Shown: positions 7,329 through 17,779 of the stretch, in pieces
Layout: each line of letters opens with the position of its first letter
How positions within the stretch are numbered: the stretch's first letter is position 1
Virus record (IMG/VR): IMGVR_UViG_2737471865_000001
Span: 1-34,668 of that record
From: a virus
Taxonomy: Duplodnaviria > Heunggongvirae > Uroviricota > Caudoviricetes
Length of the DNA: 34,668 bases
Direction: 5' to 3' (one strand)
Notes under the pieces: model-generated
Databases searched by the model: none
The model's input: only the letters and a program-made list of their open reading frames with translations
What the model was told of the DNA's origin: nothing
Translations under genes and position numbers: made by a program

Positions 7329-7478
7329 TGACAAAACAACTCAGTCCTTACCAGGACAAAATTCACAAACACATACTACGTGATCGCTTCCTGTCCAGCT
7401 TCAAGCAGCCTGGTCGATTCCGGGCTGAGTTGGAAAAAGTGAAGCTGATGCAGAAGGAGAAAGGTCATGAGTAATCTT
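7329..7478 (+). CDS. hypothetical small protein (49 aa), not in the ORF track
   Basis: My translation: [55 protein letters not shown]; its stop overlaps the O start. Confidence 0.35.
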
Positions 7479-8327
7479 GCAACCGTAACACATTTAAGGC
7501 CTTCACAACGGCCTGTGGAGCGTCGTGTGGCAGAAGTTGAAGATGGTTATACCCGTCTTGCAAATGCCCTGTATGAAGAGCTTATCGGCGCAGATTTAAC
7601 GAAAAATCAGAGCAAGGTTGCCCACGCCATATGCCGTAAAACATACGGCTACGGTAAAAAGATGGATCGCATCTCTGATAGTCAGTTAGCTCAAATTACC
7701 AGGCTGCCAAGACAGAAGGTAAACAAGGCCAAGAATGAGCTTATCGCGATGAAGGTTATCCTTCGCGAAGGCCAGCAAATCGGGCCTAACAAGAACATCG
7801 AGGAATGGCAAATCGAAGGGTGTCACTACTCTGGTGATAATGTCACTGCATTGGTGACAAAAACTGTCACCAAAACGGTGACAGCGCTGTCACCAAAACA
7901 GGGACACACAAAAGAAACTATTACAAAAGAAAAAAGAAATAATAAAAACACTATGTCCGAAAGTGTTCGGACGGAGTGTGAAAAATCACATGACCGTCAC
8001 GAAGAAACCGACAAGGCATTCGAGGAAATATTCTGGTGTGCAGGCATGCGGAAAGCCGGGAAGAAAAACGCAGCTTCGGCATTCAGAACACAGTTCAGGG
8101 AATGGCGTAAAACTACCAGGGGTACGGCAAGCGAGTTTGCCACGATGCTGGCAGAAGACATCGCATGCAGGAATGGTAAGCAGTTCGGATTCGACAGGTT
8201 GTTACCATCGAGCTATCTGAACGGTCAGCGCTGGAACGACGAGAAGCCAGAAACTATTCAACCACAATCCAAACCATCATCCGCAATCACCGTATCGAAA
8301 ACTGGCTACGTGTTTTTCGACAGGTGA
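7467..8327 (+). CDS. O: replication initiator, lambda O-like N-terminal domain
   Basis: N-terminal [55 protein letters not shown] is the lambda O / Phage_rep_O DNA-binding domain. Internal linker [20 protein letters not shown] is encoded by iteron DNA. Confidence 0.85.
7819..7955. repeat. origin of replication: seven alternating GGTGACA/TGTCACC iteron motifs plus adjacent AT-rich tract, inside the O gene
   Basis: Motif copies at 7821, 7833, 7841, 7853, 7865, 7878 and 7889 at roughly 11-12 bp spacing, followed by an A/T-rich tract 7896..7955 (aaagaaactattacaaaagaaaaaagaaataataaaaac). Same architecture as ori-lambda. Confidence 0.7.
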
Positions 8328-14508: not shown

Positions 14509-14693
14509 ACGCCACAATTCAAACGATACCAGAGCTTCTTATCCAGACACGAGGCAATCAGACCGAAGTGGCGAGGATGCTTTCCTGCGCAAGAGGAACA
14601 GTGCTCAAGTACAACCGAGACAGCAAAGGCGAGCGTCATGTAATAGTTAACGGCGTCCTGATGGTCAAACAGGGCAAGAGGGGAAGACGATGA
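14505..14693 (+). CDS. ninH: NinH-like small DNA-binding protein
   Basis: 62 aa with TIPELLIQTRGNQTEVARMLSCARGTVLKY, resembling lambda NinH (Fis-like HTH). Confidence 0.75.
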   Translation: MNATIQTIPELLIQTRGNQTEVARMLSCARGTVLKYNRDSKGERHVIVNGVLMVKQGKRGRR

Positions 14694-15178
14694 GCATAAG
14701 AGAACTAAACCTCACCAAAGAGCAGCACGATTGGCTGAATGGCTGGCTTGAACTGTGGGGAGCATGGGTTTATTCAGGTCGTCTTGAAAAGCGCATGAGC
14801 AGCGTAATAGCGAAGTTCATGGAGAGCGTAGAGCCGGGAAGAGTTATGACAAGGCCGATGTGCAATGATGATGATGGAATGTTGATTTCTCAGGTCGTCG
14901 ATTCCGTCATGTACATTGACAAGAAAGCCTTTGGCATCCTCCTCAGCTACTACGCCCACGGTTCTTCCAAGCACGCCATTGCATCTTACTATCATCGCGT
15001 CGCAAGACCTCGCAAGATGTTATGCCGGGGCGGCGGGCGCATTCAAAAACCATCGCTCGCAACCTGTCGTCGGGAAGTTGACGAAATCCTCAATGCCTCG
15101 TTGTTTATGATTTACCCGGTTCTGGATAGTGCGTTTAAAAACCGGAAACGTGTAGAGAAAATTAAACATGTAGCGTAG
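14690..15178 (+). CDS. Q: late-gene antiterminator Q (non-lambda type, probably phage 21/82 family)
   Basis: Called mainly from position: last gene of the nin region, directly upstream of a strong -35 TTGACA and the lysis cassette. 162 aa, not lambda Q-like in sequence; the N gene and nut sites are phi21-type. Confidence 0.55.
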   Translation: MSIRELNLTKEQHDWLNGWLELWGAWVYSGRLEKRMSSVIAKFMESVEPGRVMTRPMCNDDDGMLISQVVDSVMYIDKKAFGILLSYYAHGSSKHAIASYYHRVARPRKMLCRGGGRIQKPSLATCRREVDEILNASLFMIYPVLDSAFKNRKRVEKIKHVA

Positions 15179-15334
15179 AACGTGTTGACATCATTGAGCA
15201 AATGAGCAACACTATTCGCATAAGCTGCCGTTAGTGACTCTTAAGTTGCAACGGTGGCTTTTTTTGTTTGCACAACAGGTAAGAGCATTCTCCTTTATGG
15301 GGCTTGGCTTAAATGCACCGAGTGCTCTTATCGT

Positions 15335-15464
15335 TGTGGTGAAGCTCAATGGCGAGCTAGCAGATAGGCGACAGTGAAAATACTAGTCATGTAGCTGACC
15401 GCCGCGCGTACTGCAATCGGCAGCGCACCGATGGAAGCCGGTTCGATTCCGGCCGCCACAACCC
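15335..15464 (+). ncRNA. tRNA-like element (non-canonical; possibly a degenerate or interrupted tRNA)
   Basis: Canonical T-arm GCCGG-TTCGATT-CCGGC (15437..15453) followed by CGCCACA, which can pair with TGTGGTG at 15335..15341. A D-arm-like GCTC-aatggc-GAGC at 15344..15357 and a 5-bp stem with 7-nt loop at 15416..15432. Total span ~130 nt, with ~58 nt between the D-arm and the anticodon-like arm; the loop lacks U33. Confidence 0.25.
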
Positions 15465-15553
15465 AAACTGAGCCGTAGCCACTGGCTATCCTGAATTCAT
15501 CAGTGATAGTTACGCTGCGGCCTTCTACACATGACCTTCGTGAAAGCGGGTGA

Positions 15554-15586
15554 CAGGAGGTCGCGCTAACAACCTCCTGCCGTTTT
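15554..15586 (+). terminator. hairpin plus short T-run upstream of the lysis genes
   Basis: Stem CAGGAGGT / ACCTCCTG (8 bp, 10-nt loop) followed by CCGTTTTG. Confidence 0.4.
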
Positions 15587-15706
15587 GCCCGTGCATATCG
15601 GTCACGAACAAATCTGATTACTAAACACAGTAGCCTGGATTTGTTCTATCAGTAATCGACCTTATTCCTAATTAAATAGAGCAAATCCCCTTATTGGGGG
15701 TAAGAC

Positions 15707-16030
15707 ATGAAGATGCCAGAAAAACATGACCTGTTAGCCGCCATTCTCGCGGCAAAGGAACAAGGCATCGGGGCAATCCTTGCGTTTGCAATGGCGTACC
15801 TTCGCGGCAGATATGATGGCGGTGCGTTTACAAAAACAGTAATCGACGCAACGATGTGCGCCATTATCGCCTGGTTCATTCGTGACCTTCTCGACTTCGC
15901 CGGACTAAGTAGCAATCTCGCTTATATAACGAGCGTGTTCATCGGCTACATCGGTACTGACTCGATTGGTTCGCTTATCAAACGCTTCGCTGCTAAAAAA
16001 GCCGGAGTAGAAGATGGTGGAAATCAATAA
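15707..16030 (+). CDS. S: holin S (lambda class I holin)
   Basis: 107 aa, [36 protein letters not shown]... with dual-start MKM and three TM segments; essentially lambda S. Confidence 0.96.
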
Positions 16031-17143: not shown

Positions 17144-17290
17144 ACATCTGCAGTAAACCGCGCATCGCAGCGCGTAACAATCCCGAGTCTTTCAGAAAGC
17201 TGAGCCTGAGAACTGCCGTATATGGTGGCGACCATCTCGGGGCGGCTTTTCTGTGCGAACAGGCTCATCTTTCTAAAAGGTAAAGACGCT

Positions 17291-17779
17291 ATGAACCAAT
17301 TAGAAGAAAAGCTTCAAAGAATGATTTCCTTATACAAGGAAGATAGCTGCCAAAAAGTTCCTGAAAACATCGCAGAGTTAATGGAATTGGCAAGTGAATT
17401 TTCTGGCATGCTTAAGTCGTCAGGTGTTCGGTCAGCGTTCTTTGTTGAAATGCTGATGCACGGCGGACTTATGGCAACAATGAGACGTGTAATGGAAGAC
17501 CAGAGAAAAGAACCTCCTCAGGTATACGTTTTGTCATCGAAGAAAACTGGGCTAACCAAAATTGGGTATTCATCCAACATTCCACAACGCATCAAATCGC
17601 TTGGCAACTCTGGACCAGACTGCTTGAAGCTTGAGTGCCTGATCCCTGGTGGAAGAGAAACTGAAAACATGCTTCATCGCAAATTTGCCGCAAAGAGAAA
17701 GCACGGTGAATGGTTCGCCCTGTCCAAGGATGACATTGAGGGATTGAAATCTGTAGCGATTACTTCCGATGGCTATTAA
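17291..17779 (+). CDS. T5orf172-domain (GIY-YIG-superfamily-like) protein with helical N-terminal extension
   Basis: C-terminal region VYVLSSKKTGLTKIGYSSNIPQRIKSLGN...ENMLHRKFAAKRKHGEWFAL matches the T5orf172/MUG113 signature (VYVL..G..KIG...N...R...L, then LH..F...R..GEWF). Start taken at ATG 17291 (MNQLEEK...). Confidence 0.6.
   Translation: MNQLEEKLQRMISLYKEDSCQKVPENIAELMELASEFSGMLKSSGVRSAFFVEMLMHGGLMATMRRVMEDQRKEPPQVYVLSSKKTGLTKIGYSSNIPQRIKSLGNSGPDCLKLECLIPGGRETENMLHRKFAAKRKHGEWFALSKDDIEGLKSVAITSDGY

Follow-up and report, generated by a model that had tools for sequence, protein, structure and literature searches.

The stretch of DNA analysed here (the window) is the whole of IMG/VR virus record IMGVR_UViG_2737471865_000001, 34,668 nucleotides (nt) of a phage of the Caudoviricetes. 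Between gene Q (14690-15178, phage-21/Sf6 type) and the lambda-type holin gene S (15707-16030), which is followed by R and Rz, it carries at 15333-15462 an element that had been noticed from the letters alone as a non-canonical structure resembling a transfer RNA (tRNA). It is well supported that this element is one copy of an unannotated phage RNA gene family, a tRNA-derived RNA of 126 nt with five helices; what we infer from that structure is its function. The unit extends upstream of the element itself, where a hairpin (P0, 15278-15332) and a short box (15271-15276) precede it. Its parts are as follows.

15271-15276, + strand: CACAAC box, of the same sequence as the closing stem's 3' strand; conserved as the left edge of every copy of types A and C (see below)
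15278-15290, + strand: 5' strand of the P0 helix, GGUAAGAGCAUUC, paired with 15320-15332 in the minimum free energy fold; compensatory variants in loci L137, L036 and L128
15291-15319, + strand: variable insert capping P0; in other copies unrelated sequence of 24-60 nt
15320-15332, + strand: 3' strand of the P0 helix, GAGUGCUCUUAUC, with no spacer before the closing stem
15333-15341, + strand: 5' strand of the closing ("acceptor") stem, 9 nt, GUUGUGGUG; its canonical part of 7 base pairs (bp) starts at 15335
15344-15357, + strand: D arm, GCUC-AAUGGC-GAGC, with the D-loop GG present; invariant in the family
15360-15414, + strand: extra long arm of 55 nt between the D arm and the anticodon-like arm
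15360-15363 with 15411-15414, + strand: helix L1 of the long arm; two-sided changes at 3 of 4 pairs
15364-15366 opposite 15404-15410, + strand: internal loop of the long arm, AUA opposite GCGCGUA; conserved
15367-15375 with 15394-15403, + strand: helix L2 of the long arm; two-sided changes at 8 of 10 pairs
15376-15393, + strand: apical loop of the long arm, 18 nt
15382-15387, + strand: self-complementary hexamer ACUAGU in the middle of the apical loop, the proposed site of kissing-loop dimerisation
15416-15432, + strand: anticodon-arm mimic, AUCGG-CAGCGCA-CCGAU (5 bp/7 nt), with A33, G34 and C37
15437-15453, + strand: T arm, GCCGG-UUCGAUU-CCGGC, 99.6% paired; two-sided changes at 3 of 5 pairs
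15454-15462, + strand: 3' strand of the closing stem, CGCCACAAC, with CCA directly 3' of it at 15463-15465

The minimum free energy fold reproduces this five-helix shape and is unexceptional against shuffles (z = -1.74), and the case that the shape goes beyond chance rests on comparison rather than on thermodynamics. We collected homologues from IMG/VR with two independent sequence patterns; the copy counts given here are lower bounds, and 46 distinct homologues form the alignment (A3) on which the pairing statistics and a covariance model (R1) are based. On A3, 94.7% of the cells of the named structure are paired, vs 30-47% when the partners are slid by 1-3 columns, and 23 of the 40 pairs have changes on both sides; none of 500 shuffles, a control that ignores phylogeny, reached any of the pairing measures. 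The covariance model finds the window copy at full model length (148.8 bits, E 1e-31) and no other copy in the window, while the tRNAs of phages Sf6 and BTP1 and the lambda N leader are not matched at E<=1. A weak match at 7851-7896 (14.9 bits) was set aside as unrelated, being part of a repeat array inside the open reading frame (ORF) at 7467-8327; the run of GGTGACA / TGTCACC repeats there (7828-7900) resembles replication-origin iterons inside an initiator gene.

What had been read from the letters is all present in the sequence: a 7-nt pairing of TGTGGTG (15335-15341) with CGCCACA (15454-15460), the T arm, the D arm, the 5-bp/7-nt hairpin, some 58 extra nt after the D arm, and a candidate anticodon loop that lacks U33 and has A at the equivalent position. 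The acceptor pairing exists, but it is 9 bp long (15333-15341 with 15454-15462) and not 7, because the two further pairs covary, pair -1:73 being UA in 19, GC in 16 and AU in 8 sequences of A3 and pair -2:74 being G-C in 40, A-U in 3 and U-A in 1. The whole closing stem (pairs 1-9 with 124-132 of A3) is 97.6% paired. The D stem is nearly invariant across the family, and the stem of the 5-bp hairpin covaries, AUCGG/CCGAU changing to AUCAG/CUGAU or AUAGG/CCUAU; there are seven variants of the T stem (CCGG, CAGG, UAGG, AUGG, CAUG, UUGG and GUGG). Near-invariance extends to motifs that are unpaired: GAAGCU.A..GG.GAGCUAG, the AUAG // GCGCGUA internal loop, the YWKCGCA loop of the hairpin, the GGAA linker and UUCGAYU. 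Positions 15333-15462 of the window have everything by which we recognise a member under model R1, namely the five helices with A3 spacing, the CGCA loop, the AUAG // GCGCGUA internal loop and the self-complementary hexamer. A pyrimidine of the D loop (A3 column 18, 15350 in the window) and one of the T loop (column 117, 15447) change together, being U/U in 22 and C/C in 24 of the 46 sequences on several T-stem backgrounds. D-loop and T-loop pyrimidines lie close together in the elbow of a tRNA, and this match could be either a tertiary contact of the elbow or an outer-shell linkage. A tertiary pairing between the GCGC of the 7-nt loop and the GCGC of the internal loop was also considered; both are near-invariant, and their rare variants are uncompensated.

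In several respects the element has what a tRNA has: an acceptor stem (9 bp rather than 7), a D arm with G18 G19, and a T arm with the T54-Psi55-C56 motif. It departs from a tRNA in U33, the purine at 37, U8 (the position-8 equivalent is A instead of U) and the length of 73-95 nt, members of the family being 124-127 nt long. With the filters off, the T4 tRNAs align weakly to the model (at most 20 bits), the long arm being deleted and the 5-bp hairpin placed on their anticodon arm, so that the element is built like a tRNA into which an arm has been inserted between positions 26 and 27. The separating sequence (15358-15415, ~56-58 nt) is thus an added arm, and as it lies between the D arm and the anticodon-like arm, outside the anticodon loop, it is not an intron of a known type. 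The tRNA finders by which the element was to be checked reject it. ARAGORN calls neither a tRNA nor a transfer-messenger RNA (tmRNA) anywhere in the window and none of the 46 full-length members of A3, and among the Rfam models nothing reaches the gathering score, including the tRNA model RF00005. At E<=10 on 15150-15720 the best Rfam match is a partial one to tmRNA, below threshold at 20.2 bits (gathering score 47), over the acceptor strand and the T arm, and neither Y RNA-like RNA (YrlA) nor another Rfam tRNA mimic is matched there.

The anticodon-like arm points to one tRNA in particular. Compared with the anticodon arm of E. coli argQ, tRNA-Arg(ACG), which reads CUCGG-CUACGAA-CCGAG, the arm AUCGG-CAGCGCA-CCGAU is identical at 13 of 17 positions, C32, C35, G36 and A38 among them; the mismatches in the loop are A at 33, G (sometimes U) at 34 and C at 37. 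Throughout the family the loop reads YWKCGCA, with A33 in all variants but one and C37 always. When the long arm is deleted in silico, ARAGORN calls a tRNA-Arg in 15 of the 46 members (anticodon GCG in 14, UCG in 1). From the arm and these calls together, we suggest that the element was derived from, or mimics, tRNA-Arg. A33 and C37 break two near-universal rules of decoding, and EF-Tu accepts a 12-bp stack of acceptor and T stems, that of the element being 9/5, or 14 bp. Residue 73 varies among A, C and U, and CCA is inconsistent: it follows the stem in the window, appears as ACCA after the 9-bp stem in type B copies, and is missing in Skate-like and type C copies. Judged from A33, C37, A8, the 9-bp stem, the variable residue 73 and the inconsistent CCA, ordinary decoding by the element is very unlikely.

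The hexamer in the loop of the long arm is self-complementary in all 46 distinct sequences and in all 99 full copies. It occurs in seven forms, ACUAGU, UCUAGA, UCUGGA (with a U.G wobble), UCGCGA, GCUAGC, ACCGGU and UCCGGA, and self-complementarity is retained through compensatory change, as one would look for in a kissing loop: pair 52:57 is UA in 25, AU in 18 and GC in 3 sequences, and pair 54:55 is UA in 32, GC in 10, CG in 2 and UG in 2. Since UCUGGA is complementary only by way of U.G, the constraint points to RNA rather than DNA, and since the hexamer cannot pair with itself within one molecule, it points to pairing between molecules. The simplest reading of the sequences is that the hexamer would be the site of an intermolecular loop-loop (kissing) homodimer. 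Pairing of the hexamer with the invariant CUAG at the junction of D arm and L1 was rejected, as it is broken in the CGCG, CCGG and CUGG variants.

We extracted at least 137 copies, about 60 of them distinct and all of 124-127 nt, and in 100 loci there is exactly one copy per locus. By BLAST the element is found in 92 phage records, with carriers that include HK75, vB_EcoP-611R6, S.Inf 5-2, the PDP110 phages, the Salmonella Skate/Akira/seszw group, Pantoea phage PdC23 and the P22-like BIS08P22, and in 175 of 5,426 complete E. coli genomes, where it is chromosomal every time. The family thus occurs in lambdoid, P22-like, Skate/Akira-like and Pantoea phages, on unrelated backbones and in unrelated slots that often adjoin tRNA genes; free-standing HNH/homing endonuclease genes stand near it in BIS08P22, Akira, PdC23 and the prophages with type C copies. 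A scan of one genome per species with the exact pattern gave five matches, in Klebsiella pneumoniae, Enterobacter, Superficieibacter, an Enterobacteriaceae metagenome-assembled genome (MAG) and a Cellvibrionaceae MAG. The last of these (L148 4321-4450, on the 9.7-kb contig JAUVQU010000080.1) scores 148.8 bits, identical to the window copy, and is probably contamination, a mis-binned enterobacterial phage contig. A pattern forcing another anticodon-like closing pair, used to look for distant relatives, gave 10 loci, none of which matches the covariance model.

In every listed record the element is unannotated or lies under a spurious feature. The false annotations (ON470589/ON470594, PQ186186, MH321493, OP745620/1 and NZ_CP060061) include a coding sequence (CDS) for "polyubiquitin-A", CDSs for "hypothetical protein" and, in vB_CECAV_048, a 58-nt "tRNA-Ser" that spans the hairpin and the T arm only. 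The element is absent from Rfam 15, and in the searchable literature we found no mention of it, whether by its sequence strings, by the strings of the tag frame described below or by tRNA-like together with lambdoid, N leader or Q-holin. The Pas small RNAs near holin genes are unrelated to it.

At the locus, the element belongs to the late leader, whose signals could be placed by alignment.

15185-15213, + strand: late promoter pR' (phage-21/Sf6 type), within the 3' end of gene Q, by alignment to the pR' annotated in HK75 and Sf6
15223-15264, + strand: tR' terminator hairpin and U-tract of the late leader, mapped from the HK75 Tr' and the Sf6 terminator and qut features

A scan of 15100-15760 for sigma-70 promoters and terminators made no call, none inside the cassette, and missed pR' as well; the loop of tR' is too large for the terminator scanner, and its position is taken from the homologous annotation. 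No source of transcription other than pR' is evident for the element, and as the element lies downstream of tR', its transcription would be expected only on Q-dependent read-through. The original prediction had stated that lambdoid phages often carry tRNA genes between Q and the lysis genes, which is what we see in Sf6, BTP1 and HK446, where tRNA-Asn(GTT) and tRNA-Thr(TGT) occupy the slot after tR'. In HK446 (L153 1098-1253; NC_019714.1 35097-35252) ARAGORN calls both in the interval from pR' to the holin gene, for which RefSeq's feature table lists no tRNA. Alignment shows that in the window and in HK75 the tRNA cassette of the slot has been swapped for another cassette, 15271-15465, whose right-hand junction coincides exactly with the tRNA 3' end. 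Beyond the junction, the 240-nt leader 5' of S (15466-15706) is near-identical in Sf6, BTP1 and HK75 regardless of the preceding cassette; it has a conserved hairpin, CAGGAGGU...ACCUCCUG, at ~15555-15582 and a stem-loop across the dual start of S. Further downstream, after Rz, lies an ORF of 185 amino acids (17222-17779), the C-terminal half of which looks by eye like a domain of T5orf172 / GIY-YIG type.

Copies of the element occur in three types of context. Type A, that of the window (at least 79 copies), consists of the CACAAC box, the P0 hairpin of 12-13 bp (GGUAAGAGCAUU / AGUGCUCUUAUC), which encloses the hypervariable insert and abuts the closing stem without a spacer, and then the element. 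P0 covaries, L137 having GGUAAUGGCACUG / CAGUGCCAUUACC and L036 and L128 carrying other pairs. The box is pairable with GUUGUG (15333-15338), which would extend P0 to a helix of ~19-21 bp, and the box variants CAUAAC, UGCAAC, CGCAAC and CACAAU retain the pairing if wobble is counted. A role of the P0 insert as an antisense guide has no support, since even with up to 3 mismatches allowed the window contains nothing else that it matches. Type C (at least 23 copies) has the type A layout with a different P0 and lies between a Q-like gene (and an HNH endonuclease gene) and lysis genes. Type B (at least 35 copies with 26 distinct flank pairs) has instead of P0 a covarying leader-trailer helix of 10-12 bp, which lengthens the stem to ~20 bp with one bulged A, and translation signals, namely a Shine-Dalgarno sequence plus start codon, follow the element in 32 of 34 copies of this type.

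Two type B loci, L010 and L071, have lambda's own flanks, that is the nutL boxA/boxB, CATTCAAAGCAGAAGGCTTTGGGGTGTG ... CACACCACCAAAGCTAACTGACAGGAGA and then lambda N. Lambda itself (L145; 35381-35501, - strand) shares the base of the N-leader stem and the flanks with L010 7898-8028 and L071; its interior is 88 nt long and unrelated. As a homologue the lambda interior was rejected, since it shares only the 9-mer CGATTCCGG and a 7-mer with the element, in the wrong order, and has no model match. The N-leader stem is the one that RNase III classically cuts, near +88 and +197, and it thus behaves like a dock whose cargo can be exchanged. The window copy is not itself an N-leader copy: in place of a helix of ~20 bp between nutL and the N start, which its type B relatives have, it follows tR' and has P0.

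Other interiors are found in the same surroundings. AGUGCUCUUUCCG and UUGUGGUGAA precede other interiors in many phages, and many E. coli matches span the box and P0 alone. The Q-holin region of a prophage of E. coli GB089 (L164 893-1375) holds two modules, the first with the window's P0 insert, GTTGTGG and then CAGCACAACGATAG replacing the tRNA-like interior, the second with the box, P0, UGUGGUGAA, a differing interior ("cargo 2") and CGCCACAAU. Cargo 2 is also present in HK629, HK633, EC.P3, the Klebsiella phages ZCKP8 and Magnus (157 kb) and Erwinia phage Gungnir39. Its 5' and 3' hairpins have complementary loops, GCUGAU / AUCAGC, around a middle of 50-230 nt, and might form an intramolecular kiss of 6 bp that replaces the D/T elbow; no Rfam family matches it. 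Further interiors are those of L173/L182, with the stem GUUGUGCUG / CAGCACAAC, and of L172/L192. The same socket with other interiors was also seen at L165, L166, L167 and L168 (P0 and GUUGUGGUG / CRCCACAAC). In L173 (7921-7967, - strand) and also in L182, the P0 insert contains the core of a type I hammerhead (CUGACGAG-stem II-CGAAAC-stem III-GUC; Rfam 24.7 bits, E 0.002, gathering score 34), which suggests that P0 caps can hold self-cleaving ribozymes.

In 41 IMG/VR contigs (L169-L206) a tmRNA-like tag frame lies between modules. It reads ...AGAUAAAU GCA AAC GAU GAU GUU GUU CUG AUG GCG GCG UAA UAG CCUG, encoding ANDDVVLMAA before two stop codons, has an E. coli-like resume context and shows only synonymous or conservative variation. 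We observed it at L008 1320-1355, L164 1037-1072 and L167 267-302, and in RNA arrays and large phages' tRNA clusters; four loci (Akira L008/L087, L075 and L137) have it ~190 nt upstream of the tRNA-like element, and in the window ANDDVVLMAA is absent. At the tag loci ARAGORN calls no tmRNA, the Rfam tmRNA matches are sub-threshold and no G3.U70 acceptor is evident, and the tag strings had no match in the searchable literature. A separate frame of the tmRNA type in the long arm of the window copy (GCG ACA GUG AAA AUA CUA GUC AUG UAG) was rejected, as it is not kept in other members.

Differing interiors fused to one P0 at GTTGTGG / CACAAC indicate cassette exchange at the conserved strands, which lends indirect support to the proposal that the element serves as a recombination target; as its primary role, we rate a role at the level of DNA low. 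The picture that these loci suggest is one of arrays of modules, each of P0, a 5' strand, an interior and a 3' strand, in which interiors would be swapped at the conserved strands. In multi-module arrays CACAAC is the 3' strand of the preceding module, and on this view the CACAAC box of the window would be the 3' strand of a preceding module that was lost, or a recombination scar.

Among known systems, canonical and class II tRNAs share with the element the acceptor-like stem, the D-arm GG, the UUCGA T arm with G53-C61 and the five-helix junction. They differ in that the element has 126 nt, with its arm between the D and anticodon arms and not in the variable region, and in the 9-bp stem, A8, A33, C37, variable N73 and inconsistent CCA; the tRNA models of ARAGORN and Rfam reject it. 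T4 species 1 RNA (rnaC, 139 nt, at the end of the T4 tRNA cluster), a stable RNA, is alike in its size of ~130-140 nt and its neighbourhood of tRNA genes, and in having a canonical T arm beside the closing stem at its ends and an internal arm that is long and irregular, but has no D arm, anticodon-arm mimic or palindromic loop; with only 13 bits from the covariance model it was rejected as a homologue and is counted as an analogue only. The lambda N-leader RNase III hairpin is the very stem on which type B copies (L010, L071 and others) sit, with matching flanks; its own interior goes unmatched by the model, and the window copy is in a late leader with P0. With the tRNA-like domain of tmRNA the element shares a long helix that leaves a tRNA-like core, and some arrays have the tag module, whereas the element has a full D stem and an anticodon-like arm, no pseudoknots and no conserved internal frame, and its pair 3:70 is U-A.

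The dimerization initiation site (DIS) of HIV-1, the packaging RNA (pRNA) of phi29 and the ROOL and GOLLD RNAs are alike in a hairpin loop that displays 6 self-complementary nt, the sequence of which drifts while complementarity is kept. ROOL and GOLLD (PMC12286853) and phi29 pRNA are phage-associated RNAs that form homo-oligomers, and the element is likewise phage-borne and near tRNA genes; it differs from all of these in that its dimer is a proposed one, its loop has 18 nt and not 9, and its sequence and fold are unrelated. Finally, counter-defence tRNAs, such as the T5 tRNA-Lys/Thr/Asn acting against PARIS and the tRNA-Thr of T4, Bas32, Bas33 and HK446 acting against P2 OLD, resemble the element in tRNA shape and an altered anticodon arm, and the tRNA-Thr(UGU) of HK446 occupies the same genomic slot as the window element. 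They are functional replacements for cleaved host tRNAs, however, while the element cannot plausibly decode.

The reading that we favour, with some hesitation, is that the element is processed into a dimeric, non-decoding mimic of tRNA-Arg, a trans-acting decoy for, or inhibitor of, a factor directed at tRNAs. The element would have no promoter of its own and would be transcribed with the late operon as Q reads through tR'. RNase III would then cut the adjoining long helix, which is the box-extended P0 here and the leader-trailer stem of ~20 bp in N-leader copies, and at the closing stem RNase P and 3' trimming would do the rest, excising the RNA as tRNAs are excised from rRNA operons. The stable RNA so released would pair with a second copy through the palindromic hexamer of the long arm, and the dimer would offer a tRNA-binding factor a pair of tRNA elbows and a pair of tRNA-Arg-like anticodon loops that do not decode; that factor would most plausibly be a tRNA-targeting defence nuclease of the host or a tRNA-handling enzyme. 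That single-stranded motifs are conserved, that the length is fixed and that the long-arm loop holds a palindrome all speak for an RNA that acts in trans and has a specific partner, and against a bare site of cleavage; presence in the tRNA clusters of virulent phages favours a trans-acting RNA as well. A slot shared with tRNA-Asn and tRNA-Thr suggests a role in the conflict over host tRNAs: tRNA-Asn(GUU), like tRNA-Thr(UGU), is a target of the PARIS nuclease AriB (PMC12409363), and P2 OLD is a tRNase whose effect on OLD-sensitive phages is overcome by the tRNA-Thr(UGU) of HK446, which restores their plating (bioRxiv 10.64898/2026.07.10.737580).

Several points weigh against this. The helices of the long arm and the hexamer variants fall into two or three lineage-linked alleles, so that independent compensatory events number perhaps five or six and not dozens. 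Collection by pattern inflates invariance in the regions of the pattern, for which the use of two different patterns is a cross-check, and the family is compact (at least 73% identity) and confined to phages of Enterobacteriaceae. We know of no phage-defence nuclease directed at tRNA-Arg. HK75, which carries the element in its Q-S slot, is reported to be sensitive to P2 OLD (bioRxiv 10.64898/2026.07.10.737580), and the element therefore does not protect against the OLD tRNase. The mechanistic steps beyond the conserved structure are ones that we infer from sequence.

Much of the same evidence can be read differently. The element might be a cis-acting module for processing or insulation, in which the tRNA shape recruits RNase P and the long helix RNase III, the nut/qut leader is cut off the downstream mRNA, N autorepression is relieved in the N-leader copies, and the excised RNA has no function of its own. 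Such a module would explain why most copies lie in the 5' leaders of long operons under antitermination, those of types A and C downstream of tR' and others between nutL and the ribosome-binding site of N, why translation signals follow nearly all type B copies, and how the lambda stem, with its unrelated interior, works without the element as cargo. Against it, a signal for cleavage needs no invariant anticodon-like loop, conserved internal loop, arm of fixed length or palindrome, and the element occurs outside such leaders too, in the tRNA clusters of virulent Skate/Akira-type phages and in Pantoea PdC23; we consider this reading unlikely, though it is the chief competitor of the favoured one. 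A connection with tmRNA is improbable in our view. Here the element would be the tRNA-like domain or the partner of an unusual phage tmRNA-like system, of which the window has the tRNA-like half only. The tag frame, with its resume context, double stop and conservative variation, does stand upstream of the element in Akira (L008/L087), L075 and L137, tmRNA model matches occur below threshold, and tmRNA is the sole Rfam match of the window element. Only 4 of at least 137 copies have the tag module, however, and most tag modules precede other interiors; the window lacks the frame, these loci offer no G3.U70 for alanyl-tRNA synthetase and no tmRNA to ARAGORN, and a tag 5' of a complete tRNA-like unit fits neither a one-piece nor a permuted tmRNA.

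That the element is a working, if eccentric, tRNA-Arg is very unlikely. It would be charged by arginyl-tRNA synthetase (ArgRS) and decode CGN with its expansion arm tolerated, perhaps resisting anticodon nucleases, and phage tRNAs do escape nucleases through changes in the anticodon arm (PMC12409363). Invariant C35 and G36 with only G or U at 34, both giving Arg anticodons, fit this reading, as do the 15 of 46 ARAGORN calls after deletion of the arm, the likeness to argQ over 13 of 17 nt and the CCA of the window and type B copies. It is hard to reconcile with A33 in nearly all and C37 in all members, with A8 and the 14-bp acceptor/T stack, with a variable residue 73 and with the many members without CCA; A20, an identity element for E. 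coli ArgRS, is absent too. A function at the level of DNA, as a site of recombination or homing or a mimic of an attachment site, with the inverted repeat GTTGTGGTG / CGCCACAAC and the hexamer bound by protein, appears highly improbable. It could account for interiors swapped at the conserved stem strands, for the direct CACAAC repeats that flank the cassette and for the homing endonuclease genes nearby in several contexts, but G.U is tolerated where a DNA palindrome would break (U6.G67 in 11 of 46, the hexamer UCUGGA, the box variants), five separate helices covary, and the tRNA motifs are specific to one strand. The other half of the original prediction, a degenerate or interrupted tRNA, is one to which we give next to no credence in the form of a functionless pseudogene: rejection by tRNA finders and the non-canonical positions 8, 33 and 37 would suit it, and it is contradicted by the strict length of 124-127 nt, by compensatory changes in every helix, the extra arm included, by near-invariant unpaired motifs and by the spread over unrelated phage lineages. 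Its alternative, a tRNA-like structured RNA in the late leader, is the one that the comparative structure supports.

A wider proposal takes in the surroundings of the element, and we regard it as doubtful though worth stating. It holds that enterobacterial phages carry modular RNA gene arrays, previously unrecognised, in which a common socket carries interchangeable RNAs (a homodimerising tRNA-Arg mimic, RNAs of the cargo-2 type, a mini tmRNA-like ANDDVVLMAA RNA and sometimes a hammerhead-like cap), and that the mimic in the window would, as a dimer, decoy or inhibit a host nuclease directed at tRNAs, a counter-defence made of RNA only. It would then stand for a new class of anti-defence molecule, in a hotspot that also holds anti-PARIS and anti-OLD tRNAs.

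The element is outside tRNA, tmRNA and every Rfam family, while tRNA mimics as a kind are already known; the system of sockets and arrays, if confirmed, would be further from anything described than the element itself. Although few genomes have been studied as closely as those of lambdoid and P22-like phages, no record examined has an annotation of this RNA, and the covariance model would let annotators avoid false ORFs across it. For structural work the element, if the inference holds, would offer a compact natural RNA in which a tRNA core is joined by a fifth arm and, probably, a symmetric kissing interface. In many relatives the RNase III hairpin of the lambda N leader would be a docking site for an RNA gene. 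If the favoured reading is true, a non-decoding dimeric tRNA mimic would join the arms race over the cleavage of host tRNAs (PARIS, OLD, PrrC, retron-Septu and Schlafen).

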